This document shows positions 18,384-53,911 of a stretch of DNA of 53,911 nucleotides, one piece after another. Each line of letters starts with the position of its first letter. Within the stretch, counting starts at the first letter, position 1. The translations under genes and the position numbers were made by a program. Location of the stretch: the NCBI GenBank assembly GCA_028876375.1, contig JAGWSB010000004.1, forward strand, positions 1-53,911, given 5' to 3'. Below the pieces are notes generated by a model that saw only the letters and a program-made list of their open reading frames with translations, did not search any database and was not told where the DNA came from. Source of the stretch: Chloroflexota bacterium. GTDB lineage: Bacteria; Chloroflexota; Limnocylindria; P2-11E.

Positions 18384-18665
18384 CTAGCGGCGGACGGTGT
18401 GGCCCCGCAGCGGGTCGAGCGCCTTGGCCCAGTCGACGAGACGGTCGATCGGCACGCCTCCGGTCGCGGTCCACTCGTGCCGATCGTCGTCGACCATTCC
18501 GTCGCAGTAGGCCCAGCGGCCGCGGTAGACGGTCAGCCCGCCGCGTCCGCCGCGCGACGGCGCCTCGCGATGCGCCACCCTCTCGCAGACCCAGTGCACC
18601 ACCGCGTCGGTGGGTCGCACGTGCGCGGCGCTCTCGTCGTGCCATAGCGGAGGCTGCACGCGCAT
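18384..18665 (-). CDS. Small hypothetical protein with C-x4-H...C...H motif
   Basis: SD GGAGGGAG, TGATG coupling with the upstream ORF, paralogous to 24480..24719. Confidence 0.7.
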   Translation of the reverse strand: MRVQPPLWHDESAAHVRPTDAVVHWVCERVAHREAPSRGGRGGLTVYRGRWAYCDGMVDDDRHEWTATGGVPIDRLVDWAKALDPLRGHTVRR

Positions 18666-18883
18666 CACTCCCTCCACAGCGAGCCCTGCGCCGGCTCGTC
18701 GTGCTCGGGCCAGAACGGATCGTCCGACAGCTTCACCGCGGTCTTCACGCGCGCCGGGTCGACGCGCACGCGGCCCTGCGGACCCTCGAGCTCGGCCGTG
18801 AGGATCCCCCCGCTATCGGCCCAGCAATGAACGAGGTCGCCCTCCGGCGTCCGGTACGTCCCCAGATCGACGGTCGTGTTCAT
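18665..18883 (-). CDS. Small hypothetical protein (72 aa)
   Basis: SD GGGGAG before ATG, globular composition (MNTTVDLGTYRTPEGDLVHCW...). Confidence 0.65.
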   Translation of the reverse strand: MNTTVDLGTYRTPEGDLVHCWADSGGILTAELEGPQGRVRVDPARVKTAVKLSDDPFWPEHDEPAQGSLWRE

Positions 18884-19081
18884 CGACCTGCTCCCCCGTG
18901 CGCGGACCGTCGTCCGCCCGATGCCGCGACTGCAAGTCTGACACCGAGCAGGACACCCAGGGCCCTCTCGCTCGGCGCCGATCGATCGTGCCGCGAGCGT
19001 TCCGCGAGTGTCACGCGTGAAGCGGTGTCGAGGCAAGAGGAAGGATGCGCGTGCGCGCGCGAGCGGCCGCCGAGGGAGCGG

Positions 19082-19942
19082 TCAGACCGCGTGCTGCGCG
19101 AGCGGCCGCGGCAGCGGCTCCTCCTTCTTGACGCGCTCGGCCGCGCGACCGATGAGCACCGCGCAGTGCGCGCCGGAGAGCACCTTGTCCGCGGTCGTCC
19201 CCTGTAGGAAGCCCTCCCCGATCCCTGTCCCGCGCGATCCCAGGACGATGAGATCCGCGCCCAGGCCCCTCGCGCGCTCGAGGATCCGGTCGGCGACGTC
19301 GCCGCGCTCGACGACGATGTGCGTCGTCCAGAGGGGCGGGAGCTGGCAGGCCGCGACGTGGAGCAGGTCCTGCGCGCGCGTCAGGTCGACGCGCGCGTCG
19401 GGCAGGACGTGCATGAGCACGACGTTGGTATCGCGGGGCAGCGGGAGGACGGCGAGCGTGGCGATCGCGGCACGGGAGTCGGGCGAGCCGTCGACGGCGA
19501 CGAGCACCCGCCGCGGCGCATGGCGGCGCTCGCGTACTACGAGGACGGGCAGCGGCGACGAGCGCGCCAGGCTGCGCGCGGTGCTTCCGAGGATCGCGCC
19601 GGCGATGAGCCCGCGCCCGCGCGATCCGAGGACGATGAGCTCCGAGCGCGTCGCGACGGCAGTGGTGAGGATCGCCCGTGCGGGCGAGCCTGCGCCGACG
19701 TGGACGTCCGCGTGGATGCCGCGCGCGCCGAGGTGCCGCGCCGCGAGGTCGGCGATCTCCGCGGCGGCGGTCTCCTCGACCAGCGGTGAGATCCCGCCGT
19801 CGCCGCCCAAAGCCGCCGGGCGAAGCGGGACCACGGTGAGCACGGTCACGGTGTCCGTCTCACGGCGGTGCGGCATGTCGCAGAGCATCTCGAGGGCGAC
19901 GTCCGCGGCGGCCGAGCCGTCCGTGGCAAAGAGGATCCGGAT
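19082..19942 (-). CDS. Tandem-domain universal stress protein; probable ATC start
   Basis: IRILFATDGS, LGSRGRG, LGST, VAVDGS; AAGGAG lies 7 nt before ATC; paralog 34659..35594 starts MRILFATDGS. Confidence 0.85.
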   Translation of the reverse strand: MRILFATDGSAAADVALEMLCDMPHRRETDTVTVLTVVPLRPAALGGDGGISPLVEETAAAEIADLAARHLGARGIHADVHVGAGSPARAILTTAVATRSELIVLGSRGRGLIAGAILGSTARSLARSSPLPVLVVRERRHAPRRVLVAVDGSPDSRAAIATLAVLPLPRDTNVVLMHVLPDARVDLTRAQDLLHVAACQLPPLWTTHIVVERGDVADRILERARGLGADLIVLGSRGTGIGEGFLQGTTADKVLSGAHCAVLIGRAAERVKKEEPLPRPLAQHAV

Positions 19943-20116
19943 AGTGCCGCTCCTTTTCCTGCTTCTGGCTTCATCGAGGGTGTGGCCCGGTCCGTCGGTC
20001 ACGCTAGGGGCATACGGACGCACATCGGATGGCGGAGCGCGGTCGTCGGCTGGGCCGATCGCGTGTGCGTGCGCGCAGGTCGCTGGCCGCGCGGTCTCCG
20101 TCCGGTCGCTTCCCGT

Positions 20117-20148
20117 TACCCGAAAGGCTCTATGGCCCGAGACGGCCC
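20117..20148. promoter_or_regulatory. Tandem DosR-box-like sites in the divergent usp/hsp20 promoter
   Basis: tacccgaaaggctc and gcccgagacggccc, followed by a TAGCGT -10. Confidence 0.5.
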
Positions 20149-20178
20149 TGGCTAGCGTCGGACCCCGGAGGTGGAGCC

Positions 20179-20616
20179 ATGACACTCGCTCGCTGGACCC
20201 CGCTACGCGACCTCATGTCCATGCGAGAGGCGATGGACAAGCTATTCGACGAGAGCCTCATCCCGCCGGCGTTCCTCACGATGGAGCACCGGACCTTCCC
20301 GGTCGACCTGTACGAGACCGCGGAGACGTACACGCTGAAGGCGTCCCTTCCGGGCATGGACCCGCTCAAGATCGGCGTCGAGGCGATGTCCGATGCGGTC
20401 ACCGTGAAGGGTGAGCTGGTCGAGGAGAAGGAGGAGAAGAAGGGTGCCGTCGTACGCCAGGAGCGCCGGTATGGGCGCTTCGAGCGCACCATCGGGCTGC
20501 CCGTGGCGATCGATCCGGCCAAGGTCGAGGCCACGTACGAGCACGGCGTGCTCACGCTCGTAATGCCGAAGTCACAGGTCGTGCGCCCGAAGAGCATCGA
20601 GGTGAAGGTCCGCTAG
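20179..20616 (+). CDS. Small heat shock protein (Hsp20/alpha-crystallin)
   Basis: PVDLYET, ERRYGRFERTIGLP, ATYEHGVLTLVMPK; SD GGAGG. Confidence 0.95.
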   Translation: MTLARWTPLRDLMSMREAMDKLFDESLIPPAFLTMEHRTFPVDLYETAETYTLKASLPGMDPLKIGVEAMSDAVTVKGELVEEKEEKKGAVVRQERRYGRFERTIGLPVAIDPAKVEATYEHGVLTLVMPKSQVVRPKSIEVKVR

Positions 20617-23661: not shown

Positions 23662-23737
23662 GGGGCATTCGGCTCATGGCCCGATGGGATCGGCGACACC
23701 GTTCGGGGGGTCGACCGACGGTACCGCCGAACGGCCC
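23662..23737. promoter_or_regulatory. DosR-box-like sites in a divergent promoter
   Basis: ggggcattcggctc (23662-23675) and ccgccgaacggccc (23724-23737). Confidence 0.5.
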
Positions 23738-25272: not shown

Positions 25273-25393
25273 GTCCGGCACCTCCGCGTATCGCATCCGG
25301 AGGCCGACGCTAGGAGGCGCGGAAGCGCGCCGTCACGGCTGTACGGACGATCGTGGGGGCGTCCTTGCGCACGTGGCGTGAGGCCGTACGCGA

Positions 25394-25577
25394 TCGGGGC
25401 ATGCAAAGCCCCGAGCGATCCGCGTCCGCTTCGGGATGGTGTCTGGACCTTCCCATCCCGTTCGGTGGGACCGACCCTTCGTGCCGCCACGTCGGGTCGT
25501 TCTTGATGCCGTCCCCAAGGCCGATCGCTTTGATGGGATCTCCGTTCGATCGGTCTCTCTGCGGATCCCTCGGGAGC
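25394..25577 (-). ncRNA. Candidate structured ncRNA (end-paired rod, 6S-like)
   Basis: -10 TACGGT 6 nt upstream; 5' GCTCCCGAGGGATCCGC pairs with 3' GCGGATCGCTCGGGGC (15 bp); inner stems TCCCATC/GATGGGA, GGGAC/GTCCC, CGACCC/GGGTCG; no credible ORF. Confidence 0.55.
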
Positions 25578-25620
25578 AGCGTCACCGTATCCGCGCCTCG
25601 CCTGCCACGACAGGTCGGAG

Positions 25621-25648
25621 GGGACCTTTCCCGCGCGACCAACGTCCC
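25621..25648. promoter_or_regulatory. Tandem DosR-box-like sites upstream of the ncRNA candidate
   Basis: gggacctttcccgc and gcgaccaacgtccc. Confidence 0.55.
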
Positions 25649-25849
25649 GCGTCGTCGGTGCGGAGCGATCGGGCCAGCCGCAGAACGTCGCCCTGACGTG
25701 CGACGGACGGTCGCCGATCACGTGTCCGGCGGGCCTAGGACGGGCATGGGCGGCGGCACAGGCTCGTCCTCGATCGCCGGCGGGGAGACCACGAAGGTCA
25801 CGGGGGAGCCGAGCGCTCGCCGTGCCGCCCGCGGCTCGGAGGTGACGAG

Positions 25850-26743
25850 GTGAAGGTGCTGCTCGCGACGGATGGGATGCCGTGCTCCCGGCCGGCCGAG
25901 GACCTCGTCGCGACCATCCTCTGGCCGCGCGGCAGCGCGATCGACGTCATGACGGCCGTGCGTCCCCTCGAGACCCCCGGCGCGATCGCGCCCGCGATGC
26001 GCGGCGCGATGCTGCGCACGTCGAAGCTGCCGGCGGAGGAGCACCTGCGGAAGCTGGCGGAGCGCATCGCGGCGCCCGGGCGTGTCGTGCGCACGGTCGC
26101 CGCGATCGGGCGGCCGGCGACCGCCATCGTCGAGGAGGCCGACCGCCTGCGGTGCGACCTTCTCGTCATGGGCAGCCGCGGACGCGGCACGTTCGCGTCG
26201 TCGCTCCTCGGATCGGTCGCCGCCGAGGTCGCGTTCCACGCCCCGTGTCCGGTGCTCGTCGCGCGCACCGCCCGCTGGGGGCGTGTCCTGTTCGCCGAGG
26301 ACGGATCGGCCGAGGCCAGCGGGGCCGCCGCGCTCCTCGCGACGTGGCCCATCTTCCAGGGACTGACGACGCGCGTCGTCAGCGTGGCGCCCATCGACGG
26401 CGGCCTGTCGGTCCCCGTCCCGGCGGGACCGGTCCGTCACGCGAACGCGAGCGAGCCGTTCGCGACCGCCGTCGACGCGGTGCGGACGGCATGGGCGGAT
26501 CTCGCGCGCGACCGTGCGCTCGAGCTCGAGCGGAGCGGGCTGCACGCGCGCGAGGACCCGCAGGTCGGCGACCCCGCCCGCGAGATCGTGAACGCGGCGG
26601 TGCGCTCGGAGACCGACGTCATCGTCATGGGCTCGCGCGGCAGGACCGGCCTCGAGCGGCTGCTCCTCGGGAGCGTCGCGCGGAACGTCCTCACCCACGC
26701 GCCGTGCTCGGTGCTCGTCGTGCGCCACGGGGTGGTGAGCTGA
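25850..26743 (+). CDS. Tandem-domain universal stress protein
   Basis: KVLLATDG, MGSRGRG, LLGSVA, APCPVLV, GSVARNVLTHAPCSVLVVR. Confidence 0.92.
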   Translation: MKVLLATDGMPCSRPAEDLVATILWPRGSAIDVMTAVRPLETPGAIAPAMRGAMLRTSKLPAEEHLRKLAERIAAPGRVVRTVAAIGRPATAIVEEADRLRCDLLVMGSRGRGTFASSLLGSVAAEVAFHAPCPVLVARTARWGRVLFAEDGSAEASGAAALLATWPIFQGLTTRVVSVAPIDGGLSVPVPAGPVRHANASEPFATAVDAVRTAWADLARDRALELERSGLHAREDPQVGDPAREIVNAAVRSETDVIVMGSRGRTGLERLLLGSVARNVLTHAPCSVLVVRHGVVS

Positions 26744-32057: not shown

Positions 32058-32151
32058 CGACCGGACCGTACGTCGCGCCGCCGCGGCGGACGTTGGCCGA
32101 AGGGCACCTCGCCGCGGATGATCCGGCGCCCCGCCTCGGGCCCATCGGCGG

Positions 32152-35941: not shown

Positions 35942-36055
35942 GGGCCGAAGGTCCCCCGGGCGCTGGTCGAGAGGGCCCCCGCGGACTGGGGTCGGGTCCC
36001 GCCACTTCGGGCCTCGGGGCTCTGTCGCAGGGGTACTCCGACGCGCGAAAGTCCT
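35942..36055. promoter_or_regulatory. DosR-box-like sites in a divergent promoter
   Basis: Near-perfect gggccgaaggtccc (35942-35955) and cgcgcgaaagtcct (36042-36055). Confidence 0.6.
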
Positions 36056-37075: not shown

Positions 37076-37148
37076 AGCCGCGCAGCGCCTTCGCGCCGAT
37101 CCCTCACCCCGGGGCCCGGCCGCCGACGGGCGGTGAGACCATTAGCGC

Positions 37149-39273: not shown

Positions 39274-39307
39274 GGGACGAACAGCCCTACCCGGTCCCAA
39301 GGGTCCC
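39274..39307. promoter_or_regulatory. DosR-box-like sites upstream of the second regulator
   Basis: gggacgaacagccc and gtcccaagggtccc. Confidence 0.55.
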
Positions 39308-40365: not shown

Positions 40366-41157
40366 ATGGCGGATCAGGCGAAGTCCACCGGACCACGCGA
40401 AGCATCCCGTCGTCGTCTACTGAGTGCCTTTGTAGCCGGTGGGGTGGGTCTTGCGGCTGTCCCGCTGGTGCCGATCGCCTTCCCGCAAGCGGAAGCCGCG
40501 ACGCCTCCGAAGAAGAAGCGGCAGTGGGCGATGGTCATCGACCTTCGCCGCTGCGACGGCTGCAAGAAGTGCACCGAGGCGTGCCAGACCACGCACGATC
40601 TGCCTCAGACCTTCGAGTGGATCAAGGTCTTCGAGGTCCAGGACAAGCAGGGCGGCTCGTACTTCATGCCGCGTCCGTGCATGCACTGCGAGAACGCGCC
40701 GTGCCTCCGCGTCTGCCCCGTCGCCGCGACTTTCAAGACGGACGAGGGCGTCATCCTCGTCGACCAGAGCCGCTGCATCGGCTGCCGCATGTGCATGGCG
40801 GCATGCCCCTACGGCGCGCGCTACTTCAACTTCGCTGACCCGCCGAAGCCCCCGAGCCCGTTCGCGCAGCCGACGCCCGAGCATCCCGTCCCGCAGATCA
40901 AGGGCACCGTCGGCAAGTGCATGCTGTGCGTCCACAACACCGTCGACGGCAAGCTCCCCGCGTGCGTCAGCGCGTGCGGGATGCAGGCGCTGTGGATCGG
41001 CGACCTCGTCGAGGACGTCGCGACGAACGGGACCGACACCGTCCGCTTGTCGTCGCTCCTCAAGGACAACGACGCCTTCCGCTACAAGGAAGAGCTCGGC
41101 ACGAGCCCGCGCGTCTATTACATCGCCGGCCACGGCCAGGCGCTGCAGGGCGCGTGA
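40366..41157 (+). CDS. Tat-exported 4x[4Fe-4S] electron transfer subunit (NrfC/DsrO/QrcC-like)
   Basis: SRRRLL Tat signal; CDGCKKCTEAC, CMHCENAPCLRVCP, CIGCRMCMAACP, KCMLC...PACVSAC. Confidence 0.92.
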   Translation: MADQAKSTGPREASRRRLLSAFVAGGVGLAAVPLVPIAFPQAEAATPPKKKRQWAMVIDLRRCDGCKKCTEACQTTHDLPQTFEWIKVFEVQDKQGGSYFMPRPCMHCENAPCLRVCPVAATFKTDEGVILVDQSRCIGCRMCMAACPYGARYFNFADPPKPPSPFAQPTPEHPVPQIKGTVGKCMLCVHNTVDGKLPACVSACGMQALWIGDLVEDVATNGTDTVRLSSLLKDNDAFRYKEELGTSPRVYYIAGHGQALQGA

Positions 41158-43203: not shown

Positions 43204-43820
43204 CCAAGCTGGTCCTCCGCGTCCTCGCGTCCGGCGTCGCGCTCGTCCTGGTCGCGGCGTCCTGCGGTGCATCGACCGGCGAAGGCGCACCCGCGGCACC
43301 CGCGGCGAGCGCAGCCCCGGCGACGCAGGCGCAGGCTGCGACCGCCGCGGCACCCGCCCAGCCCCAGTTCCTCGTCGTGATGGGCGACACGATCCGCGGG
43401 AACCTCGGCCTCAACAAGACCGAGATACTCACGACCGCACCCGGCATCCACTGCACCCAGCAGAACCGCTTCCCGCAGGGGGGCCGCATCGTCTGGCGAA
43501 TGAAGGTCATGGACCCTGCGACGGGCAAGTACATGGACAACAAGCAGATCGCGTCGTTCACGATCACCTACCCCGACGGTAAGACCGACAAGCTCGCGTA
43601 CGGCGGACACGGCGGGACCAAGGAGAAGCCGGCCGACATGCTCTGGGCCGTTGGCTACACGGTCCCGAACGACTACCCGACCGGGCTCTTCCCGGTGAAG
43701 ATCGTCGCGACGGATCTCGAGGGACGCACCGGCACCTTCGACCAGTTCAAGGTCGACATCGCGCAGCTCACGATCGTCCCGAAGGGCATGGACTACCCCG
43801 AGAGCCACGAAGCGAAGTAG
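43200..43820 (+). CDS. Hypothetical lipoprotein, beta-sandwich
   Basis: Lipobox VAASC, Ala/Pro linker, HCTQQNRF..IVWRMKV..YGGH..DYPTG; ATGA coupling. Confidence 0.82.
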   Translation: MTKLVLRVLASGVALVLVAASCGASTGEGAPAAPAASAAPATQAQAATAAAPAQPQFLVVMGDTIRGNLGLNKTEILTTAPGIHCTQQNRFPQGGRIVWRMKVMDPATGKYMDNKQIASFTITYPDGKTDKLAYGGHGGTKEKPADMLWAVGYTVPNDYPTGLFPVKIVATDLEGRTGTFDQFKVDIAQLTIVPKGMDYPESHEAK

Positions 43821-43845
43821 GCGAGCGGCCACGCGTTGAGGAGCA

Positions 43846-43879
43846 GGGGGCGTCGTGGTCAGGGGACCGCGACGCCCCC
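43846..43879 (+). terminator. Strong intergenic hairpin (terminator or mRNA stabiliser)
   Basis: 15-bp stem gggggcgtcgtggtc/gaccgcgacgccccc with a 4-nt loop; no U-tract. Confidence 0.5.
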
Positions 43880-43898
43880 ATGCGAAAGGAATGCATCG

Positions 43899-45404
43899 AT
43901 GCGACTGACAAGGATCCTTGCGCTCAACGCGCTCGTCGGAGCGGCGCTGGTGGGCGCGGCCTGCGGCCAGTCCGGACCGAGCGCCTCGCGGTCACCCGCG
44001 ACGGCGCAGCCGTCCAAGGCCGCCGGCCCGGCGACGGCGGCGCCCGGCGCCGCGGCGTCCCAGCAGGCCATGGACGTCACCGGCAAGTTCACGCTCCAGC
44101 CCGCGCACGGCCCGTGGGACACCAAGGTGACCGCGACCGCCGTGGGGCTCAAGCCGGCGACCGCGTACGACCTCGTGTGGACCGGCGCCAAGGTGCAGTG
44201 GAAGCTCTCGGATGACCGGAGCAAGTACCTCGGACGCGACTACACGACGACGAAGCAGGTGCTGCGGACGATCACGACCGATGCGGCCGGCTCCTTCGTC
44301 GCCACGTTCCCCGTCCCGCAGGGCTTCGGCTATGGGCACGACGTCCAGGTGGTCGACAAGGAGAACGTGATCCGGAACAAGAGCCTCTTCGACGTCGACA
44401 TGGTGACGACCATCACTCCGACCAGCGGACCGGTCGGCACGCCGATCACCGTCGAGGTCAAGGGCATCGGCTACCAGTCGTACCAGAACAGCTTCCAGCT
44501 CGACTACGACAACGCGTACACGGGATGGATCTCGTCCGTCACGACGGACGGCTACGCGAAGCTCGTCATCCCCGCGACCGGCGGGGTGGGCGCGCACTAC
44601 ATCACGATCGGGCACAGCGAGTTCGGCGCGCCGTATCTCAACCCGCAGCAGCAGCCCGTCGTCGCGTCGCGCCCCTTCCCGCACATCGCGTTCACCATCA
44701 CTCCCGGCGACGGCGTCGTCCCGCCTCCGGCGGCGCAGCAGGGCTTGCCGCAGATGGCCGCGAGGCCGGTGGACAAGGGCATCTGGACGTCACCCGCGGG
44801 CGCGACGGTCGGCACGCCCGCGACGCTCGAGGCGAAGGCGCTGCCCGCCGGCAGCGACGTGGAGATCCTCTGGACGACGCAGGTCGGGAACCGCTCGGTG
44901 ACGGGATTCGAGGAGCGCACGAGCACGCTCGGCAAGACGCGCACCGACGCGAACGGCGCCTTCAGCTGGTCCTTCGCGGTCCCCGACGACCTCGGCGGGT
45001 ACCACACCGTCAGCGCGAAGATCGGCGATGCCGTCGTCGCGAAGACGCAGCTCTACATCCTCGCGAGCGCACTTCCGCTCAACGTCGACCGCGGTCCATC
45101 AGGCACGACGACGACGGTGCATCTCAAGGGTGTCGGCTGGACGGAGACCGAGCAGATCTACCACCTCGTGTACGACAACGCGTTCGCGGGATACACCTGC
45201 GCGTTCCAGAGCAAGGGCGACATCACGGTGAACCTCACCGTGTCCGGCGCTCCGGGGTGGCACTTCATCGACATGTACCCGGGGATCTTCCAGGGCACCG
45301 AGACGCGGCCCGCCAACTACAAGATGCCGCAGCTCACCGCGCTCGACGACCACCCCGGTGAGAAGCTTCCGGTCTTCCGCTTCGCCTTCTTCGTGACGCA
45401 ATGA
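43899..45404 (+). CDS. Hypothetical lipoprotein with four Ig-like modules (ABAB internal repeat)
   Basis: Lipobox VGAAC; repeated GPxxT module starts, TDAxGxF...H and YDNA.....G.H segments. Confidence 0.85.
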   Translation: MRLTRILALNALVGAALVGAACGQSGPSASRSPATAQPSKAAGPATAAPGAAASQQAMDVTGKFTLQPAHGPWDTKVTATAVGLKPATAYDLVWTGAKVQWKLSDDRSKYLGRDYTTTKQVLRTITTDAAGSFVATFPVPQGFGYGHDVQVVDKENVIRNKSLFDVDMVTTITPTSGPVGTPITVEVKGIGYQSYQNSFQLDYDNAYTGWISSVTTDGYAKLVIPATGGVGAHYITIGHSEFGAPYLNPQQQPVVASRPFPHIAFTITPGDGVVPPPAAQQGLPQMAARPVDKGIWTSPAGATVGTPATLEAKALPAGSDVEILWTTQVGNRSVTGFEERTSTLGKTRTDANGAFSWSFAVPDDLGGYHTVSAKIGDAVVAKTQLYILASALPLNVDRGPSGTTTTVHLKGVGWTETEQIYHLVYDNAFAGYTCAFQSKGDITVNLTVSGAPGWHFIDMYPGIFQGTETRPANYKMPQLTALDDHPGEKLPVFRFAFFVTQ

Positions 45405-45410
45405 AAAGGA

Positions 45411-45445
45411 GCCGGTCCGCGCTCGAGCGAGGGGCGCGGATCGGC
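45411..45445 (+). terminator. Hairpin after the operon end
   Basis: gccggtccgcgc/gcgcggatcggc stem just after the stop codon. Confidence 0.4.
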
Positions 45446-45576
45446 ACCACCCTTTCGCGTGGGACCGCTCCGCCGATGTGCCCGATCGCAGGGGCCGTAT
45501 GCAGGATGCCCTCGGGCCTGATAGCGCTACCGAGCACGCCGACCGCCGCGTACCGTCGGTCGCCGGAGGAATAGAG

Positions 45577-46221
45577 GTGGCAGTACACGTTCCGGCGCTT
45601 CCGCGTCCCGACGTCTGGCACCGGCGCTTCGGCCCGACGCTGGCGCTCCTCCTCGTGCTCGTTCCCTTCGCCGCCATCCTCACGGTGGCCGCGCTCTCGG
45701 CGGCGCCCGCGGACGAGACCGACGTCGCGGTCACCCTCAACGACACCGCCGCGCTCGTCGACTCCCATGCCGAGGCGATGCTCACCGTGGGGCAGCGCAT
45801 CACCGCCGCGGCGCAGGCGTCGAGCGCTTCCGACCGCCTCTCGTGGATCGCCTACGGGCAGCACATGGTCTCGGACGGCAAGGACCTGCAGGGCCTGGCT
45901 TCGCGCATGCGAGACGACGCCGTCGTCGCCGCGGAGGACCCGCTGCACAGCGGACGCAACGTCGCCGTCAGCGCGCTGCAAGCGCGCTGGGAGCAGCTGA
46001 AGGCCGACGGCCAGACGACGGCGACGCACGGTCGCGTCATGCAATCGATCACTCAGGACATGGCGCCCGCCATCTCGAGCGGCATCGTCAGCGCCGCGGA
46101 CGCGAAGAAGCTCCAGGACGCATCGACCGGGATGGTCGACGCGGGCGAGCGCATCGTGAGCGCGGCGAACGTCCTCCTCGCGTCGACGGATCAGATGCAG
46201 CGCTGGATGGGCAACCCCTAG
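45577..46221 (+). CDS. Hypothetical membrane-anchored helical protein with His/Met motifs
   Basis: SD GGAGG, N-terminal TM, all-alpha character, SHAEAM / GQHM / THGRVM. Confidence 0.75.
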   Translation: MAVHVPALPRPDVWHRRFGPTLALLLVLVPFAAILTVAALSAAPADETDVAVTLNDTAALVDSHAEAMLTVGQRITAAAQASSASDRLSWIAYGQHMVSDGKDLQGLASRMRDDAVVAAEDPLHSGRNVAVSALQARWEQLKADGQTTATHGRVMQSITQDMAPAISSGIVSAADAKKLQDASTGMVDAGERIVSAANVLLASTDQMQRWMGNP

Positions 46222-46352
46222 AGCATCCCCAGCGCCGCGGCATCACTCCGCGAACGAGCTGACGAGGCGTTTGCCTCGCCCGGCCGACCGACGGCGGGCC
46301 CGGCGTGTCCCGCCACGTCCCGAACGTAGGAGGGCAGCCCGCGGCGCCACAG

Positions 46353-46405
46353 AGCCCGAACGACCCCGGGTAGGGGGCGGGACGGCCCTGGGGGACCGAC
46401 GATCC
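46353..46405. promoter_or_regulatory. Three DosR-box-like sites upstream of the PCYCGC gene
   Basis: agcccgaacgaccc, gggcgggacggccc, gggaccgacgatcc. Confidence 0.5.
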
Positions 46406-46424
46406 GAGCGCGGACTATCCGCCC

Positions 46425-46892
46425 GTGCGCCGCCGCGCTTTCCTCTTCCTCGGGGCGAGCTCCCTCTCCACGGCCTGCATCCGCGCGTTGCGCACCCCCA
46501 CCGCATGGCAGTCGCAGTCGGCGCCGCCGGCGTCGAAGATGGCCGCCAACCCCAGCGCCGGGATGTGGCCGGACGCGCTGGGGGCGACGCCGGCGGCGAC
46601 GCAGGAGGCGTACAAGTGGGCCGCCGTGAACCGGGCCACTCTCCGCTACATCCCCTGCTACTGCGGCTGCGCGGGTATCGGCCACAAGGACAACTTCGAC
46701 TGCTACGTCAGCGAGATCCGCGACGGCGGCTGGCTGGTGCTCTCCGACCACGCCCTGGGCTGACGCACATGCGTGGACATCACGCGTGACGTGATGACGA
46801 GCCTCCCGACGCAGAGCCTCAAGGACATCCGAGCCGCCATCGATGCCAAGTACTCCGGCGTCGGGCGCGGGACGCCCACCATCCTCCCTTAG
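46425..46892 (+). CDS. PCYCGC-motif lipoprotein, predicted selenoprotein (UGA 46761-46763 = Sec, UxxC)
   Basis: RRR..STAC signal, YIPCYCGC...H..N.DCY. After TGA the frame continues RTCVDI...SLKDIRAAIDAKY..TP, matching the family C-terminus. Confidence 0.85.
46778..46796 (+). promoter_or_regulatory. Candidate bacterial SECIS hairpin
   Basis: catcacg-cgtga-cgtgatg stem-loop beginning 15 nt after the UGA, with G/GU in the apical loop. Confidence 0.6.
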
Positions 46893-46911
46893 GAAGGCGC
46901 TCACTAAAGGT

Positions 46912-46961
46912 GTCCCAAAAGGTCCGGGCCGGAAGGCCCATAGGGTTGCGCCGTAGGTCCC
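46912..46961. promoter_or_regulatory. DosR-box-like sites upstream of the regulator-bcr operon
   Basis: gtcccaaaaggtcc, gggccggaaggccc (46926-46939), gcgccgtaggtccc. Confidence 0.6.
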
Positions 46962-46999
46962 TGTTCGCCGCCAAGCGGCGCCGACACTGTTCGGACAAG

Positions 47000-48073
47000 A
47001 TGGCCGCGCAGCACGACGGTGGACCGGTCCTGGTCGCTGAGGACGATCTCGAGCTCCTCGGCAAGCTCCGCGAGGCGCTACGCGCCGAAGACCTTCTCGT
47101 CGTCGCCTCCCGCAGCGTGCGCGCCGCGGTCGAGGCCGGCGCGTTCCACCGCCCCGCCGTCGTCGTCGTCGACCTCGGCATGGACGGCGGCCGCGGCTGG
47201 GAGCTGCTCCACGCCATGGGCAGCCGCCCCGGCACCGCGGTGCTCGCGCTCGACCGGCGCGGCGACCAGCTGGTGCGGCGTGGCGCGTTCTCCGCGGGTG
47301 CCGCCGACGTCGCCGGGCCACCGCTCGATGCGGCCGAGATCGCGGCGCGCGCGCGGTCGCTGTACCGCCGCGAACGCGGCGACGGCGACCCGGGTCCGGT
47401 GCTCCGACACCGCGACCTCGTGCTCGACGTTCCGCTCCACGAGGTGCGCGTCGGCGGTCGGCCGACCACGCTCACGCCGCAGCAGTTCGCCATCCTCCGC
47501 GCGCTCCTCGAGGCCCGCGGGGCAACGCTGCACCGCTCCCAGCTGCTCGCGCGCATCGCGGCCGTCGACGACGAGCCGCCCTCGGAGCGCGCGGTCGACC
47601 TCCACGTCTCGCGTCTGCGCCGCCGCCTCGGAGTGGGCAAGGACCACCACCGCTACATCGAGGCGGTGTACGGCATCGGCTACCGCTTGGCCGCGACGGA
47701 TGCGCCTGCCGCGCTCCCGTCCGACGTCGCGAACAGCGTTCTCGACGCGGTGACCGAAGGCGTCCTGGTGGTCGATCCGAGCATGCGCATCCGGGCCGCC
47801 AATCGCGCCGCGATGCGCACGCTCGAGCGCGAGGATCTGGTCGGCAGGCCGTGCGAAGAGGTCATGGGCTGCCGCACGCCGGAGGGGAACACGATCACCG
47901 GTCCGACGTGTCTCGGACGCGCCGTCCTCGCCGGAGGCGGAGCGATCCCGCGCGTGCCGATGTGCGTGCGATCGAACGGCTCCTTCATCGACGTCGACCT
48001 CTCGCACACCGCCGTGCACGTCGACGGCGGCAACACCCTGTTGGCCATCGAGGTCCGGCACAAGCCCGACTGA
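47000..48073 (+). CDS. Hybrid regulator: atypical receiver + OmpR-type winged HTH + Cys-rich PAS
   Basis: VLVAEDD...VVDLGM; ERAVDLHVSRLRRRL, YGIGYRL; LDAVTEGVLVVD..ANRAA..GRPCEEVMGC. Confidence 0.85.
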   Translation: MAAQHDGGPVLVAEDDLELLGKLREALRAEDLLVVASRSVRAAVEAGAFHRPAVVVVDLGMDGGRGWELLHAMGSRPGTAVLALDRRGDQLVRRGAFSAGAADVAGPPLDAAEIAARARSLYRRERGDGDPGPVLRHRDLVLDVPLHEVRVGGRPTTLTPQQFAILRALLEARGATLHRSQLLARIAAVDDEPPSERAVDLHVSRLRRRLGVGKDHHRYIEAVYGIGYRLAATDAPAALPSDVANSVLDAVTEGVLVVDPSMRIRAANRAAMRTLEREDLVGRPCEEVMGCRTPEGNTITGPTCLGRAVLAGGGAIPRVPMCVRSNGSFIDVDLSHTAVHVDGGNTLLAIEVRHKPD

Positions 48074-48109
48074 CATCGAACGGACGATCTTCGTCCGTAC
48101 GGTGCGCGC

Positions 48110-48544
48110 ATGGCCGCATCCGGTACCCAGCTCCGACCGAGATCGCTGACCGTCGCTGACGCGGAAGCACTGGCCGCGCTTTCGCTGAAGCTGGGCGGAA
48201 GCGAGACGGTCGCGCAGTGGGTGGCCTTCTTCGGGCGTCCCCACGCCATCGCCGTCGGGTCGATCGCCGACGGCCACATCGTCGGGTACGCCGCCGGAGA
48301 GGTCCGCACCGGGTTCGGCCTGCCGAAGCCGGTCGCCTGGGTCGAGGCGTTCGGGATCGATCTCGAATACCGCGGCGCAGGTCTGGGCCGCACCCTCCTC
48401 GGCGAGCTCCTCCGTCGAGCCGCCACGCTCGGTGCGGCCCACATCTACACGCTCGTGCCCGTGCACGACCGCGTTCTCGCGCCCTTCTTCCGGCAGCTCG
48501 GCTTCCGCGACGAACCGCTCAGTTGTTTGGGGTGTTCGCTATGA
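48110..48544 (+). CDS. GNAT acetyltransferase (BadL-like)
   Basis: VGYAAGEVR, YRGAGLGRTLL acetyl-CoA loop, FFRQLGF; coupled to bcrC. Confidence 0.8.
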   Translation: MAASGTQLRPRSLTVADAEALAALSLKLGGSETVAQWVAFFGRPHAIAVGSIADGHIVGYAAGEVRTGFGLPKPVAWVEAFGIDLEYRGAGLGRTLLGELLRRAATLGAAHIYTLVPVHDRVLAPFFRQLGFRDEPLSCLGCSL

Positions 48545-49701
48545 CGATGACCTTCGAGAGCTACCGCGACGTCATCGAGGATCGTGAGTACCCGACCGTG
48601 CGCGAGTGGCGCGATCGGACCGGCGGCAAGGTGATCGGGTGCTTCCCCGTGTACGCGCCCGTCGAGGTGCCGTACAGCCTGGGGATGCTCCCGATCGGCC
48701 TCTTCGGCGGCGGCAACCGCGTGGAGATCGCCAACGCCGACTCACGGTTCCAGTCGTTCATCTGCTCGATCGTGAAGAGCACGCTCGAGCTCGGCTTCAT
48801 CGGCAAGCTCGACGTCCTCGACGGCCTGATGTTCCACTCCATCTGCGACCCGGCCCGGAACCTGGCGAGCGTGATGGGGCGGAACTTCCCGCAGCGGCCG
48901 GCGGTGTTCGTCCACCTGCCGCAGAACTTCCAGTCCCCCTTGGCCGCGCAGTACATGGCGACCGAGCTGCGGCGCGCCGCGGACGAGCTCGGCGCGATCG
49001 CCGGCCGCAAGGCCCGCGACGAGGACCTCGCCGCGGCGATCGTGGCGTACGACAAGGTGCGCGAGCTCCAGCGGCGCCTCTACGCTCTCCGCAGCTCCTC
49101 GCCGGAGCGCATCTCGACGAGCGAGCTGTACACGCTCTCGCGCCTCGCGACCCTCATGGATCCCAAGGACGTCGCCCCCATCCTCGAGGCGGCGCTCGCC
49201 GGCGCGATCAAGAGGACGGAGCGCCCCAAGGACCGCATCCGCGTCGTCCTCGCCGGATCCTTCTGCGAGCAGCCACCGCTCGAGCTCATCGAGAGCCTCG
49301 AGCAGGCCGGCTGCTACATCGTCGACGACGACTTCCTGCTCGGTTGGCGCACGCAGCGTCACCCGATCGAGGTGAACGGCGATCCTTTCCTCGCGCTCGG
49401 GAACGCGTACGTGAACGATTCACACCACCTGAGCCCCAAGCACGACCTGCGCAAGCCGCGAGCGGCGGGGCTCATCGAGAGCGCCAAGGCGAACCGCGCG
49501 GACGCGGTCATCTTCCTCGGCGCGAAGTTCTGCGAGCCCGGCCTGTTCGACTACGCGCTCTATCGGAAGGCACTCGAGACGAGCTCGATCCCGCATCTCA
49601 TGCTCGAGTTCGAAGAGAAGATGTGGCTGTACGACCGCATCCGCAGCGAGGTCGAGACGTTCGTCGAGTCGATGCTGTTTGCGGAGGCGAAAGCGTCATG
49701 A
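48541..49701 (+). CDS. bcrC: Class I benzoyl-CoA reductase subunit C (HgdB family)
   Basis: [52 protein letters not shown]. Confidence 0.85.
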
Positions 49702-51029
49702 CGCCAGCAACGACCGCGACACCGACGAAGAAGCCCGCGGCGGACGCCAAGCCCGCCGCGCCGGCGATCAAGTACCAGGGCACCGTCCACGAGCTGCAGA
49801 AGCAGCTCATGAGCAAGTACTACGCGGACCTCACGAGCATCGCCGAGGGCGGCCCCGGGCGGAGCGCGCAGCTCCTCATCGCGGGCAACCCGGTCGAGGT
49901 CCTCCGCACGTTCGACATGATCCCCGTGTTCCCCGAGATCAACGCGCTCCAGCTCGCCGTGCGCAAGAACTCGCTCCCGCTCATCCAGAAGGCCGAGGAG
50001 CTCGGGTACTCCACCGACAACTGCGCCTACGTGAAGGCCGACATCGGCATGTGGGAGAACGGCGGCAAGACGCCGTTCGCCACCATCCCCAAGCCCGACG
50101 TCCTCGTCTGCAACTACGTCGGGTGCAACGTCTACCTCAACTGGTTCGAGCATCTCGCCGAGAAGGTCGGGTCGCCGGCCATCAACATCGACATCCCGTT
50201 CATGCGGACGAAGGACGGCCAGCCCGCGGAGGGCGACGTAGAGTACGTCGTCGCGCAGCTCAAGGAGCTCGTGAAGCTCCTCGAGAAGGTCACCGGGATG
50301 CCGTTCGACGAGGACAAGTTCGTCAAGATCGTGGAGCGCTCCTCGCGCGTCGGCCAGCTGTGGTCGCAGATCCGCGACCTCACGAAGAAGCGCCCGACGC
50401 CGTACGACGCGTACTTCGACTCGGTCACGATGATGGCGCCGCTCTACTGCCTCCGCGGCACGGAGGAGGCCGTCGACTTCTTCGAGCGGACGCTCGAGGA
50501 GATGACGGCGAAGGTCGAGCGCGGCGAAGGCGCGCTCCCCGACGGGGAGAAGTTCCGCATCGTCATCGAGGGCCCGCCGCCGTGGCCCTTCCTGCGCGTC
50601 TTCCGCGACATGTTCAGCCGCTGGGGCGCGGTCGCGGTCGCCTCGACGTACGCGACGGTCGGCGGCATCTGGGAGTTCGGGTTCCATCACGACCCCGCGC
50701 ACCCGTTCGAGAGCGTGGCCAAGCACATGATCGAGGCCAACCTCTGCAACCGCTCGATGCTCCAGCGGTACGACCAGATCTGGCGGTACGCGCAGGAGTG
50801 GAGCGCCGACGCGCTCGTCATCCACTCCGTCAAGAGCTGCCGCCTCTTCTCCGCGGGGCAGGGCGACATGCGCGAGCACTTCGTGCACGACCGCGACCTG
50901 CCGACGCTGCTCATCGAGTCGGACCTCGAGGACCCGCGCTACTTCTCGCAGGCGCAGCTGCGCAACCGCATCGACGCGTTCTTCGAGGCGCTGGAGCAGA
51001 GGCGCATCACCGGAGGGAAAGCGGCATGA
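49698..51029 (+). CDS. bcrB: Class I benzoyl-CoA reductase subunit B (HgdA family)
   Basis: [55 protein letters not shown]. Confidence 0.87.
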
Positions 51030-51838
51030 GCGAAGGGATGAGATACAGCGCGGGCGTCGACGTCGGGTCGACGCAGACCAAGGCGGTCATCCTCGACGAG
51101 ACGGGCGCCATCGTCGCGCGCGCCCTCACCGACACCGGGGCGTACCTCGTGCGCGCCGCGGAGCGCGCCTACGAGCAGGCGCTCCAGTCGGCGGGGGTCC
51201 ATCGCGAGCAGGTCGGCTACGTCATCGGCACCGGGTACGGCCGGTTCAACGTCGCGTTCGGCGACGCGCAGGTCACGGAGATCGGCTGTCACGCCAAGGG
51301 GGCGTGGTCGATCTTCCCGAACACGCGGACCGTCATCGACATCGGCGGCCAGGACACGAAGGCCATCGCCGTCTCCGACCGCGGCGAGGTGCTCGACTTC
51401 GCGATGAACGACAAGTGCGCCGCCGGGAGCGGGCGGTTCCTCACCAACTCGGCCGAAGCGTGCGGCATGGACGTGTCGCAGATGGGGGAGAAGTCCCTCA
51501 CCGCGAAGAATCCGGTGCGCCTGTCCACCGTGTGCACCGTCTTCGTCGAGTCGGACATCCTCTCGTACATGGCCCAGGGCAAGAAGATCGACGACATCCT
51601 CGCCGGCGTCCACTCCGCCATCGCGTCCCGCACCGTCGCCCTCGTGCGCCGCGTCGGCTCCAAGGAAGAGGTCACCTTCACCGGCGGCGTCTCGCGGAAC
51701 ATCGGCATGCGGCAGGCGATCGAGGAGAAGCTCGGCGTCAAGATCAACGCGAGCGGCGATTCCCACTACACGGGCGCCATCGGCGCCGCGGTCTTCGCGC
51801 TCGAGCGCATGAAGGCCGCGCCCGCCGCGGTGGCATAG
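51026..51838 (+). CDS. Benzoyl-CoA reductase ATPase/activase subunit (BcrA/BzdQ/HgdC family)
   Basis: [50 protein letters not shown]. Confidence 0.88.
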
Positions 51839-51847
51839 GAGGGCGGA

Positions 51848-52654
51848 ATGAGCCTCATCGCAGGGGTCGACATGGGAGCGCGCAGCGCCAAGGCGGTCGT
51901 CATCGACCGCAGCGGCGTCATGCGCGGGAACGCGATCGGCCGGATGCGTCCGGACTTCGAGGGCCTCGCGAGCGAGGTCGTCGACAAGGCGGTCGCCATG
52001 GCGGGGGCCAAGCGGAGCGACGTCGACTACGTCGCGACGACCGGCCTCGGCCGCTACAACGTGAGCTTCCGCGACATCCAGATCACCGACATCACGACCG
52101 TCGCGCGCGGCGCGGCGCACCTCTTCCCGAACACGCGCTGCGTCATCGACATCGGCGCCCAGAGCACGCGCGCGATCCGCATCCTCGAGGGCGGCCGGGT
52201 CAAGGAGTTCCGCTCCAACGACAAATGCGCCGCCGGCGCCGGCGGGTTCGCCGAGCGGACCGCGCGGTACCTCGAGGTCAAGCTCGACGACCTCGGCGCT
52301 CTCTCCGAGCACGCCGAGTCGGCGCAGGAGATCTCCTCGGTGTGCGCCGTCTTCGCCGAGTCCGAGATCATCAACCTCGTCACGGCGGGGCACTCCGTCG
52401 AGAACATCATCCGCGGCGTCCACAACTCGCTCGGCCAGCGCGCGCAGCAGCTGCTCAAGCGCGTCGGGATCGAGCCGGAGATCACGTTCGTCGGCGGGAT
52501 GGCGAAGCAGAGCGGCATGGTCAAGGCGCTCGAGGCGGCGCTCGGCATGCAGGTGAACGTCGCCGCCGACCCCGACCTCGTCGCGGCGCTCGGCGCCGCG
52601 CTCCTCGGCCTGCAGCGCTCGACGCGCGCCGGCGAGGAGAGGAGGGCCGCATGA
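51848..52654 (+). CDS. Second benzoyl-CoA reductase ATPase subunit (BcrD/BzdP family)
   Basis: GVDMGA, ATTGLGR, ARGA, DIGAQ, NDKCAAGAG, CAVFAESE. Confidence 0.85.
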   Translation: MSLIAGVDMGARSAKAVVIDRSGVMRGNAIGRMRPDFEGLASEVVDKAVAMAGAKRSDVDYVATTGLGRYNVSFRDIQITDITTVARGAAHLFPNTRCVIDIGAQSTRAIRILEGGRVKEFRSNDKCAAGAGGFAERTARYLEVKLDDLGALSEHAESAQEISSVCAVFAESEIINLVTAGHSVENIIRGVHNSLGQRAQQLLKRVGIEPEITFVGGMAKQSGMVKALEAALGMQVNVAADPDLVAALGAALLGLQRSTRAGEERRAA

Positions 52655-53619
52655 GCGTCATCGCTCCGCGCGCGCCGAGCGAGCTCGGCTTCAAGGACGT
52701 CATCTACAAGAAGGACGGCTGGGTCGCGACGGTGATGATCGACCGTCCCGAGGCCTACAACTCGTACACCGTCTCGACCCTCAGGGAGATCGCGGAGGCG
52801 TTCAAGGACATCTCGCGCGACGACCACATCGCGGTCGGCGTCCTCACCGGGGCCGGGGACACGGCCTTCTGCACCGGCGGCGACGTCAAGGAGTACGCCT
52901 CCGAGTACACGCAGCGGCCGCGCGACTACTGGAAGTACATGACCTACTTCATCGACGCGATCGACGCGATCAAGAACTGCGGCAAGCCGACGATCGCGCG
53001 CGTCAACGGGATGGCCGTCGGCGGCGGCAACGAGATGAACTCCGCGTGCGACCTCGCCATCGCGGCCGAGCACGCGCGCTTCAAGCAGGTCGGCGTGCAG
53101 GTCGGGAGCGTCGCGGCCGGAGGCGCCACGCAGTGGCTGCCCATCATCATCGGGGACCGTCGCGCGCGCGAGATGCTCATGACCTGCGAGTTCATCGACG
53201 CCAAGACCGCCCTCGACTGGGGCCTCGTCAACCAGGTCGTGCCCAAGGAGCAGCTCGACGACGCGGTCGCCAAGCTCGCGGCGAAGCTCGTCGATACCTT
53301 CCCCGAGTGCATGCGCTACACGAAGACGCAGGCGAACTTCTGGAAGGACTTCGTGTGGTCGATGACCGGACCCCACGCGAAGGACTGGCTGTCGCTCCAC
53401 TTCGCGGCGCTCGAGCCGTACGAAGGAATGACGGCCTTCACCCAGAAGCGCAAGGCCGACCGCGTCGGGATCCGCGAGCGCGCGGCGTCCGGCGGATCGA
53501 GCGAGTTCGTCTGGGGCCCCAACGCCCGCACCTGCCCCAAGTGCAAGGCCGAGGGTCTTCCCGCGGCCTTCGCCTTCTGCGGCAAGTGCGGCGCCGCGCT
53601 TCCGGCGAACGGAGGGTGA
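52651..53619 (+). CDS. Crotonase-family ring-opening hydrolase, 6-oxocyclohex-1-ene-1-carbonyl-CoA hydrolase-like (Oah/BamA), with C-terminal Zn ribbon
   Basis: YNSYT, AFCTGGDVKEYA..Y..RP.DY.KYM, RVNGM.VGGG.E, FPEC; terminal CPKC...FCGKC. Confidence 0.78.
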   Translation: MSVIAPRAPSELGFKDVIYKKDGWVATVMIDRPEAYNSYTVSTLREIAEAFKDISRDDHIAVGVLTGAGDTAFCTGGDVKEYASEYTQRPRDYWKYMTYFIDAIDAIKNCGKPTIARVNGMAVGGGNEMNSACDLAIAAEHARFKQVGVQVGSVAAGGATQWLPIIIGDRRAREMLMTCEFIDAKTALDWGLVNQVVPKEQLDDAVAKLAAKLVDTFPECMRYTKTQANFWKDFVWSMTGPHAKDWLSLHFAALEPYEGMTAFTQKRKADRVGIRERAASGGSSEFVWGPNARTCPKCKAEGLPAAFAFCGKCGAALPANGG

Positions 53620-53623
53620 GGGC

Positions 53624-53911
53624 ATGACCCTCACCGCTCCGGCCCCCGTGGCCCAGCGTGAGCTGGAGGGCCGCGTCGCCATCGTCACCGGCGGGTCGAA
53701 GGGGATCGGTCAGGCCATCGTCCGGGAGCTCGCGGCGCGTGGAGCCGACATCGTCTTCACCTACCGCTCGGACGACGACGGGGCCCGCTCCACGATCGCC
53801 TCCGTCGACGGCGCGGGGCGGCGGGCCGTCGCCCAGCGGGCCGACATGCGGGAGGCGGGCGCCGCCGCGCACGTCGCGCAGGCGGCGAAGGACATCTTCG
53901 GCCGCCTCGAC
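53624..53911 (+). CDS. Partial short-chain dehydrogenase/reductase
   Basis: LEGRVAIVTGGSKGIG Rossmann motif, FGRLD; truncated by the window end. Confidence 0.88.
   Translation, partial: MTLTAPAPVAQRELEGRVAIVTGGSKGIGQAIVRELAARGADIVFTYRSDDDGARSTIASVDGAGRRAVAQRADMREAGAAAHVAQAAKDIFGRLD

Follow-up and report, generated by a model that had tools for sequence, protein, structure and literature searches.

A probable DosS/DosR-type signalling system and its predicted regulon in a Limnocylindria-like Chloroflexota genome

Nearly all study of DosS/DosR signalling has concerned its role as a dormancy switch in mycobacteria and related actinobacteria. Here we describe a 53,911-bp stretch of DNA (the window), a whole contig (C107) from a 90%-complete genome (2.6 Mb in 134 contigs, ∼72% G+C). 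The window rather probably carries a DosS/DosR-type signalling system together with its regulon in a Limnocylindria-like member of the Chloroflexota. Known DosR targets include ctpF and, in Mycobacterium tuberculosis, the small RNA DrrS/MTS1338. The known benzoyl-CoA reductase (BCR) systems stand under Fnr-type or BzdR/BadR-type regulators.

Two described signalling systems are among the closest to this locus. In the DevR promoters of M. tuberculosis, as described in PMC3177182, at least two tandem, helically phased boxes are always present, at −42.5 and −63.5; the secondary boxes are poorly conserved and depend on a strong primary one for the recruitment of DevR, and the C-terminal domain of DevR contacts the half-site G4G5G6A7C8T9 (PMC3177182). 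The Streptomyces regulator OsdR has the consensus AGGGCCGATCGGCCCT, and the OsdK-OsdR system of S. coelicolor resembles the present locus in this high-GC box, in the clustering of universal stress protein (USP) genes and in the autoregulation of the regulator (PMC5069765). It differs in being actinobacterial and in its predicted targets, which include nitrate reductase and developmental genes; the account consulted of PMC5069765 makes no mention of an aryl-CoA reductase.

Gene calling relied on a model of codon usage learned from the genome itself, and annotation on Pfam and NCBIfam. Below, G-numbers denote genomes (G000 is this genome), L-numbers loci, and C-numbers contigs of G000. Among public sequences, the kinase gene has its closest relatives (70–92% protein identity) in metagenome-assembled genomes that bear the label Chloroflexi/Chloroflexota or Candidatus Limnocylindria bacterium. 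The host is therefore a Limnocylindria-like Chloroflexota and not an actinobacterium, which answers the placement check proposed in a preliminary description of this DNA. Of the 13 runs listed for the window, each is a DNA metagenome, of mine-drainage, soil or groundwater origin, and none is an RNA run.

Kinase, regulators and their boxes

The signalling genes (Pfam assignments) form a DoxX-kinase operon at 36126–39238 on the plus strand, followed by a second regulator gene:

36126–36689, plus strand: DoxX
36767–37075, plus strand: open reading frame (ORF) without assigned function
37170–38591, plus strand: sensor kinase, 473 residues
38588–39238, plus strand: response regulator RR1, its start overlapping the kinase end by 4 bp
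39431–40066, plus strand: RR2, second DevR-like regulator (REC and GerE domains)

The order DoxX-ORF-kinase-RR1 is kept in L001, L003, L004 and L006. The kinase consists of a GAF domain (residues 106–242), a HisKA_3 domain (PF07730) directly after it at residue 258, and a HATPase_c domain (PF02518). In a PDB search, residues 107–250 match the GAF-A structures of DosT/DevS (2vzw, 2y8h and 2w3d, E 6e-38 to 6e-36). The alignments to these structures show that the kinase keeps the histidine of an HPPM motif and, 22 residues later, a tyrosine (in LYLT), which we take to be the proximal and distal ligands of the haem pocket.

RR1 and RR2 are both REC+GerE regulators. The best PDB match of RR1 is M. 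tuberculosis DevR (3c3w, E 3.3e-58), ahead of VraR and NarL, and in that alignment its recognition helix, EKTVKNYVSR, is identical to that of DevR. The helix is common to RR1, RR2 and a third paralogue (C28_56422-57111), and it differs in five other NarL-type regulators of the genome. These Pfam and PDB matches (2vzw/2w3d for the kinase, 3c3w for the regulator) support the assignment of the two-component system as DosS/DosR-like, and they bear out the preliminary description, which had named a DosS-like kinase and two DosR-like regulators. The likeness to M. tuberculosis DevS/DosT-DevR thus covers the haem-type GAF-A, the HisKA_3 core and the REC+GerE regulator with its identical recognition helix; unlike that system, the present one belongs to the phylum Chloroflexota and has two to three paralogous regulators. 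RR2 is 90–100% identical across the genus (100% in L001 over 186 aligned residues, and 100% in G004 over all 211). The genes beside it are only 56–93% identical, against 90–96% for RR2.

The preliminary description had also listed 19 coordinates of GGGNC-N4-GNCCC palindromes, and we scored each of them on the eight specified bases. Only two are perfect (35942 and 46926). Seven bases match at 23662, 25635, 39274, 46375, 46392 and 46948, six at 20615, 23724, 25621, 39294 and 46353, and four or five at 20117, 20135, 36042, 46405, 46912 and 46961. The motif class is real, but the list was mostly over-called, as most of the sites are poor matches; those at 20117, 20135, 20615, 36042, 46353, 46405, 46912 and 46961 lack support. 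The site at 20615 falls within the 3′ end of a gene (HSP20).

Enrichment of the motif over background had been put forward as a check. The count in the window is at chance, with 4 strict matches vs 3.41 expected, and with one mismatch allowed there are 64 vs 92 expected. Genome-wide, 29 of the 96 strict matches lie outside called genes, in non-coding DNA that makes up 7.3% of the genome, an approximately fourfold enrichment; 15 control palindromes of the same form and G+C have 5–14% of their matches there. The non-coding strict matches favour A or C at position 4, and the two central positions are A or T in 43/58 non-coding vs 56/134 coding cases. The consensus from the non-coding matches is GGG(A/C)C-G-WW-C-G(T/G)CCC. 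It contains the half-site touched by the DevR C-terminal domain (PMC3177182) and is in essence the OsdR consensus (PMC5069765).

A fixed position weight matrix (PWM) was made from the 29 strict non-coding matches. Because it is partly circular for those strict sites, we rely on one-mismatch sites, spacing, conservation and controls. Among the one-mismatch sites of the genome that score at least 11, 30% are non-coding. Around 43 non-coding primary sites (PWM of at least 11), secondary sites (at least 5) at 10–45 bp gave 17 counts, 10 of them at 22–23 bp; no spacing peak is present around coding sites. The genome has 15 tandem pairs in all. Non-coding sites scoring at least 9 are also clustered, as 7 of the genome's 79 lie in 18384–53911, which holds 1.9% of the non-coding DNA (1.5 expected, P 8e-4). 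We regard as real the motif class as such, the tandem arrangement of its sites and their clustering at 18–54 kb. The palindromes resemble those of the DevR regulon in being of the GGGNC type, in their tandem arrangement and helical phase, and in apparent autoregulation; they differ in a spacing of 22–23 bp rather than 21 bp and in a G+C-richer box (PMC3177182). Expectation maximisation (EM) was less informative: applied to the intergenic regions of the window it gave only weak motifs of ∼10 bits, and the genome-wide run was dropped when it drifted to a generic CGATCG palindrome.

The boxes retained in the window are as follows:

23662–23675 (PWM 9.8) and 23724–23737 (PWM 9.0): two moderate boxes between USP2 and a GyrI-like gene
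25635–25648 (PWM 11.6): box 40 nt past a structured RNA element and 202 bp before USP3
35942–35955 (perfect, PWM 14.1): primary box between the USP-ATPase unit and the DoxX-kinase operon
39274–39287 (PWM 12.3): box 144 bp before RR2
46926–46939 (perfect, PWM 12.9) and 46948–46961 (PWM 11.0): tandem boxes 22 bp apart, 39–74 bp before the OmpR/PAS gene

Plausible weak secondary boxes accompany two of these, at 35964 (22 bp from 35942) and at 39294 (20 bp from 39274). Between the 35942 box and the USP-ATPase unit, a small, apparently conserved ORF of ∼38 codons with a hydrophobic N-terminus (35765–35882, minus strand) can be made out by eye; the gene caller left it uncalled, and it is readable in L001.

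The earlier remark that no such sites had been noticed before ∼18 kb holds for non-coding sites of PWM at least 9, none of which lies in the first 18 kb of the window, but not for the motif as such, since there is a strict match at 14987. This box (14987–15000, PWM 11.9) coincides with the called start of a gene for an ATP-dependent DNA ligase, and a VIT1-family gene lies just upstream of it. Tandem boxes are present at a second VIT1 gene, C28:60884, whose orthologues in L237 and L240 adjoin the unit of RNA and box described below.

Six relatives with the kinase locus (L001–L006) were compared. The box before the kinase operon is an invariant island in the seven-genome alignment A1, whose mean identity is 52%; it scores 10.6–16.5 in L002–L006, and L001, the closest relative, has it in degraded form. 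At RR2, a box is found at the corresponding position in L001 (10.8) and L005 (9.6).

The operon behind the tandem boxes

The tandem pair at 46926–46961 precedes an operon that runs to the end of the window (Pfam assignments):

47000–48073, plus strand: response regulator with REC, OmpR-type DNA-binding and PAS domains (OmpR/PAS), heading the operon
48110–48544, plus strand: GNAT protein
48532–49701, plus strand: BcrC-like subunit
49698–51029, plus strand: BcrB-like subunit
51038–51838, plus strand: BcrA/D-type ATPase
51848–52654, plus strand: BcrA/D-type ATPase
52651–53619, plus strand: BadI/Oah-like crotonase
53624–53911, plus strand: short-chain dehydrogenase/reductase (SDR), cut by the window end

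The link between the boxes and this operon is the best-supported part of the preliminary description, with tandem boxes 22 bp apart here and a box of at least 11 in 14 of 17 loci. The tandem pair recurs before the OmpR/PAS gene in L001 (9.9 and 12.3) and L005 (5.2 and 12.1), each time 22 bp apart, and in L005 the whole OmpR/PAS-GNAT-BcrCBAD-crotonase-SDR operon follows directly after RR2. Of 151 genomes searched in the class, 17 have an OmpR/PAS orthologue; they belong to four genera of a single family, and the regulator is 44–92% identical across the 17 loci (L126–L142). GNAT and BcrC-like genes follow it in every one. A box scoring at least 8.6 lies within 300 bp upstream in 16 of the 17 loci (16/16 without the unpublished genome G111). 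In 12 of the 17, the box begins 51–54 bp before the estimated start codon, and a partner box is 22–23 bp away in 7. The boxes are thus conserved across genera. Control promoters scanned in the same way, with the unpublished L199, L203, L223 and L227 (two per set) dropped, gave a box of at least 9 in 2/28 HSP20 homologues and 7/28 COX2 homologues, and one of at least 11 in 0/28 and 4/28, respectively. DosR-like regulators are present in 47 of 61 genomes of the family and in 14 of 15 sampled genomes carrying the BCR-like operon, a tally that includes the unpublished genomes G096, G111, G012 and G073.

The domain order of the protein at 47000–48073, with REC, an OmpR-type winged helix and a C-terminal PAS, is unusual, and the protein is the operon head in 17 genomes. 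It could provide a ligand-sensing second tier of control. A scan of 45300–48700 for sigma-70 promoters returned none, and the sole terminator-like match in that interval, at 46425, is inside a gene start.

The enzyme encoded by the operon combines two HGD-D subunits (PF06050 ×2) with two distinct BcrAD/BadFG ATPases (PF01869 ×2). In this, and in having a crotonase and an SDR downstream, it is like class I BCR (BcrCBAD/BadDEFG) and MbdONQP. The best PDB match is MbdO, a subunit of 3-methylbenzoyl-CoA reductase (9g87, E 2.9e-79, 270 bits). Unlike in class I BCR and MbdONQP, all four subunits are below the NCBIfam equivalog cut-offs for BCR, with 300 vs 421 bits for benz_CoA_red_C and 304 vs 487 for benz_CoA_red_B, the best NCBIfam matches, 195 vs 578 for the A subunit and 177 vs 313 for the D subunit. 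We therefore file the set as BCR-like and not as an equivalog.

These scores leave room for a different enzyme, another member of the radical-enzyme family of BCR and 2-hydroxyacyl-CoA dehydratases with its own substrate, in which case the ring-reduction label would be wrong. The HadB/HadC dehydratase models also match the subunits (177–215 bits), and the nearest structural relative acts on 3-methylbenzoyl-CoA. Such an enzyme would sit less easily with two different ATPase subunits in place of a single activator gene. The BcrC and BcrB scores of 300 and 304 bits and the 270 bits of MbdO also exceed what the dehydratases reach: HadB scores 215 bits where BcrB scores 304, and the dehydratase structure (2-hydroxyisocaproyl-CoA, HadB) stands behind MbdO at 189 bits. 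The neighbouring BadI/Oah-like and SDR genes argue in the same direction, as do two benzoate-CoA ligase equivalogs above cut-off elsewhere in the genome; no non-coding box is near the ligase genes. We regard this alternative as unlikely, though one to be taken seriously. The two ATPases, crotonase, SDR and ligases are consistent with an aryl-CoA reduction pathway, and an aryl-CoA is the putative substrate.

Structured RNA, stress genes and other neighbours

One of the boxes lies beside an RNA element:

25395–25595, minus strand favoured by gene context: structured RNA of ∼200 nt in the 553-bp gap 25297–25849

The element is conserved in two congeners (85% and 80%), in contrast to its diverged flanks. 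Three copies were used to build a covariance model (R1), which matches 71 of 92 genomes of the family, a tally that includes the unpublished G111, G155, G073 and G012. The matches comprise a strong class in ∼14 genomes and a weaker class of ∼210 nt in nearly all genomes, to which a second copy in this genome belongs (C134:751-958, L254). In five relatives the near-universal copy is flanked by a sigma-factor-like gene on one side and a gene for a UvrD helicase on the other. In 20 aligned copies, 84.9% of the cells are paired, vs 36–48% with slid partners; 36 of 61 pairs show compensatory changes, and the covariation score is 0.266, vs at most 0.096 in the slid controls. In the strong class, a box is located 15–40 nt beyond one end in 10 of 14 loci, twice in tandem. 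The 'ncRNA' of the preliminary description is thus a covarying structured RNA beside a box.

In 12 of the 14 strong-class loci, the gene on the other side of the RNA points away from the box, so that the order is box, RNA, gene. This suggests that in the window the RNA is transcribed on the minus strand, towards a YbaK-like gene. Strand tests based on G-U vs A-C counts and on RNAalifold of both strands conflict, and the model-fitted alignment is biased to the plus strand. No Rfam family was found for 25395–25595, either at the gathering score or at E up to 1, and a search of the genome for 6S RNA (RF00013) returned nothing at E up to 10. An asX1 match at 43775–43883 (E 0.42) is at chance level and was discarded. 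A riboswitch is not obvious, as the loci differ in their neighbours, which include YbaK-like, PFOR-like, histidine kinase, TusA, BON-domain, sigma-factor and UvrD genes. The position beside a DosR-type box recalls DrrS/MTS1338; unlike that RNA, to which no sequence or Rfam relationship was found, the element here is ∼200 nt long, multi-branched and present in 71/92 family genomes.

Stress genes of types familiar from the DevR regulon (USP, HSP20 and P-type ATPase) cluster around the system (Pfam assignments):

19082–20002, minus strand: USP1, tandem USP (Usp ×2, E 7.5e-47), divergent from HSP20
20233–20616, plus strand: HSP20/alpha-crystallin (E 7.5e-19), the only HSP20 found in the genome
22726–23625, minus strand: USP2, tandem USP (E 2.9e-45), with the 23662 box 37 bp upstream
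25850–26743, plus strand: USP3, tandem USP, followed by an ORF of no known family, a GT1 glycosyltransferase and a GH130 phosphorylase
29628–35594, minus strand: likely operon of USP4 (34659–35594), P-type cation ATPase (32152–34662) and Lon-like protease (29628–32057)

The four two-domain USP genes are all the USP genes found in the genome. The genes of the USP4-ATPase-Lon unit overlap or have short gaps, and their order is kept in L001. A USP2-like gene of L004 has a box (11.5) 38 bp upstream. The sites at HSP20 and USP1 (20117/20135) found no support: they match 4–5 of the eight bases, no box of PWM at least 7 was found upstream of the window's HSP20, just upstream of USP1 there is only a weak box-like sequence, and the HSP20 relatives are among the negative controls above. 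The 18–54 kb region also carries a Zn-dependent alcohol dehydrogenase.

Three further genes had been proposed as regulon cargo:

40366–41157, plus strand: NrfC-like Fe-S protein with a twin-arginine leader (Pfam/NCBIfam; DsrO-like below cut-off)
41154–42524, plus strand: NrfD-like membrane subunit (Pfam/NCBIfam; DsrP-like below cut-off)
46425–46892, plus strand: PCYCGC-family (PF13798) selenoprotein candidate, with an in-frame TGA at codon 113 in the context G-U-R-T-C

Downstream of the NrfCD pair come secreted proteins that belong to no known family. In the window the pair lacks its own box, as the 299-bp gap between RR2 and NrfC contains none of PWM at least 7; boxes occur in relatives. A box of at least 9.4 is present at 11 of 18 loci of NrfC orthologues (at least 65% identity), or 10/17 without the unpublished G111 (L159), and absent from the window, L145, L149 and four others. 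In a second group of NrfC paralogues, boxes occur in 4/4 loci.

For the gene at 46425–46892, the selenocysteine (Sec) reading is plausible. Reading through the TGA raises the PF13798 score from 54 to 82.4 bits and extends the profile match from 39–106 to 39–153 of 153 positions. The genome has two tRNA-Sec calls and both SelB (345 bits) and SelD (337 bits) above cut-off, and its SelD itself contains a TGA. A centroid hairpin of 8 bp lies a few nucleotides past the TGA, with a fold z-score of 0.36 that is not statistically distinctive. The gene is thus a candidate for a new selenoprotein form of this uncharacterised family. Its membership in the regulon fares less well, as the upstream boxes are weak (PWM 8.1 and 7.3). 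L001, the closest relative, lacks the gene.

In this genus, boxes occur also near NuoA, cydA, the phosphoenolpyruvate carboxykinase (PEPCK) gene and a malic enzyme-PTA gene. Tandem boxes (14.2 and 11.0, 22 bp apart) precede a gene for a COX2-cytochrome c fusion (G000:C46:5972-6011, L204), and likewise in the congener G004 (L205). These sites hint that the boxes touch respiration and central metabolism in this genus.

Proposed circuit and alternative readings

At the cis-element level, conservation of the box gives strong support to DosR-type control of the operon for an O2-sensitive, ring-reductase-like enzyme. As to which protein binds the boxes, what signal is sensed, whether binding activates or represses, and what the enzyme acts on, we infer the following circuit. 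The kinase is probably membrane-anchored, and its one DevS/DosT-type GAF would bind haem and sense O2, NO, CO or redox state. It would phosphorylate the co-operonic RR1, and probably also RR2 and the C28 paralogue. The phosphorylated regulators would bind the GGG(A/C)C-G-WW-C-G(T/G)CCC palindromes, often in tandem 22–23 bp apart. Predicted direct targets are the kinase operon itself (autoregulation), RR2, the USP-ATPase-Lon unit, two other USP genes, the structured-RNA unit and the OmpR/PAS-GNAT-BCR-like-crotonase-SDR operon. Given the predicted boxes before the BCR-like operon, low O2 would license the expression of an O2-sensitive ring-reducing pathway, with OmpR/PAS as a proposed second control layer that may be specific to the substrate. 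Induction at low O2 may then amount to a switch from aerobic to anaerobic life. The BCR-like operon, the NrfCD modules and the structured RNA among the predicted targets distinguish this circuit from that of M. tuberculosis.

In its fullest form the proposal is more tentative. In aerobic soil and groundwater Chloroflexota, a membrane-bound, single-GAF haem sensor of DosS type and DevR-type regulators might directly license the operon of an ATP-dependent aryl-CoA ring reductase, acting through a tandem box kept in position and through OmpR/PAS as a nested regulator, and might drive a hitherto undescribed family of ∼200-nt structured RNAs.

Several observations weigh against this circuit. The kinase has one GAF domain by Pfam, unlike DevS/DosT with their second GAF, and its first 60 residues contain two hydrophobic stretches that resemble membrane helices (by eye, no predictor); signalling may therefore differ from that of DevS/DosT. 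HSP20 and COX2 were rejected as further regulon members, as their boxes are not conserved beyond the genus. The only OmpR/PAS locus without a box of at least 8.6 is L132, in the unpublished genome G111, and the relatives compared are non-independent samples. The motif counts in the window and the BCR subunit scores belong here as well, as do the missing NarG, the mixed neighbours of the top boxes and the case of G035, which are taken up with the alternatives that they favour.

The system may be DosRS-like and yet serve a general stress or dormancy regulon, answering to NO, CO or redox state or acting by repression, so that the BCR operon would not be hypoxia-induced. USPs, an ATPase and a protease, typical dormancy cargo, make up its conserved core, and in the genus boxes also precede aerobic functions (COX2, NuoA and, at 282 bp, cydA). 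The respiratory genes comprise two COX2 and a cytochrome bd oxidase, and NarG was not found in a search of the 90%-complete genome; to judge from these genes, the host is probably aerobic or microaerobic, with some anaerobic electron sink in addition. The sign of the regulation is also unreadable from sequence. On the other side, an O2-labile, ATP-dependent reductase is useful only where O2 is scarce. The distance of 51–54 bp between proximal box and start codon in 12 of the 17 BCR-type loci would, with a short leader, match the activating −42.5 position of DevR (PMC3177182). We consider a dormancy regulon of this kind distinctly unlikely.

It is improbable that the boxes, though real, are read by some other protein, whether OmpR/PAS acting on its own promoter or another NarL paralogue, and that the kinase does not control the BCR-like operon. 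The genome offers such readers, with the C28 paralogue carrying the same helix and at least five other NarL-type regulators. The top boxes of the genome adjoin many unrelated genes (isoleucyl-tRNA synthetase, Lgt, PEPCK, RadA, NuoA, FTR1, ribosomal protein S1 and LigB dioxygenase), which may reflect either a broad regulon, several regulators sharing the motif, or some non-functional sites. In G035, the BCR operon has a box, and no DosR-like response regulator was found at E 1e-60 among the 50 of its 84 candidates that were scored. The same palindrome, however, stands before the kinase operon and the USP genes with no OmpR/PAS gene nearby, and G017 has tandem boxes before NrfC and a DosR-like response regulator, with no match to OmpR/PAS. 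For OmpR-type domains the usual target is a direct repeat and not a palindrome. RR1 and RR2 carry a recognition helix identical to that of DevR, which has the half-site G4G5G6A7C8T9 (PMC3177182).

That the palindromes are functionless chance products of a genome with 72% G+C is scarcely credible, since the window counts, at or below chance, are outweighed by the enrichment over 15 matched palindromes, the spacing peak confined to non-coding DNA, and box positions that are conserved across genera while control promoters are negative.

In the literature searched, no paper pairs 'DosR' with 'benzoyl-CoA', and only three pair 'DosR' with 'Chloroflexi', incidentally. If the proposal in its fullest form is true, the 'dormancy' regulon of the Actinobacteria would be one branch of an older hypoxia circuit in the Terrabacteria, and the branch in the Chloroflexota would switch catabolism to the anaerobic degradation of aromatic compounds. 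A conserved DosR-type box before the operon of a class-I-like aryl-CoA reductase would widen the known range and cargo of the DosR regulator family. It would also provide a defined promoter (46926–47000) and a sensor domain that are open to work in vitro, and the structured RNA family beside the boxes is a separate lead for RNA biology. Finally, such a box would reveal how soil Chloroflexota, abundant and uncultured as they are, set the timing of a pathway that is sensitive to O2.

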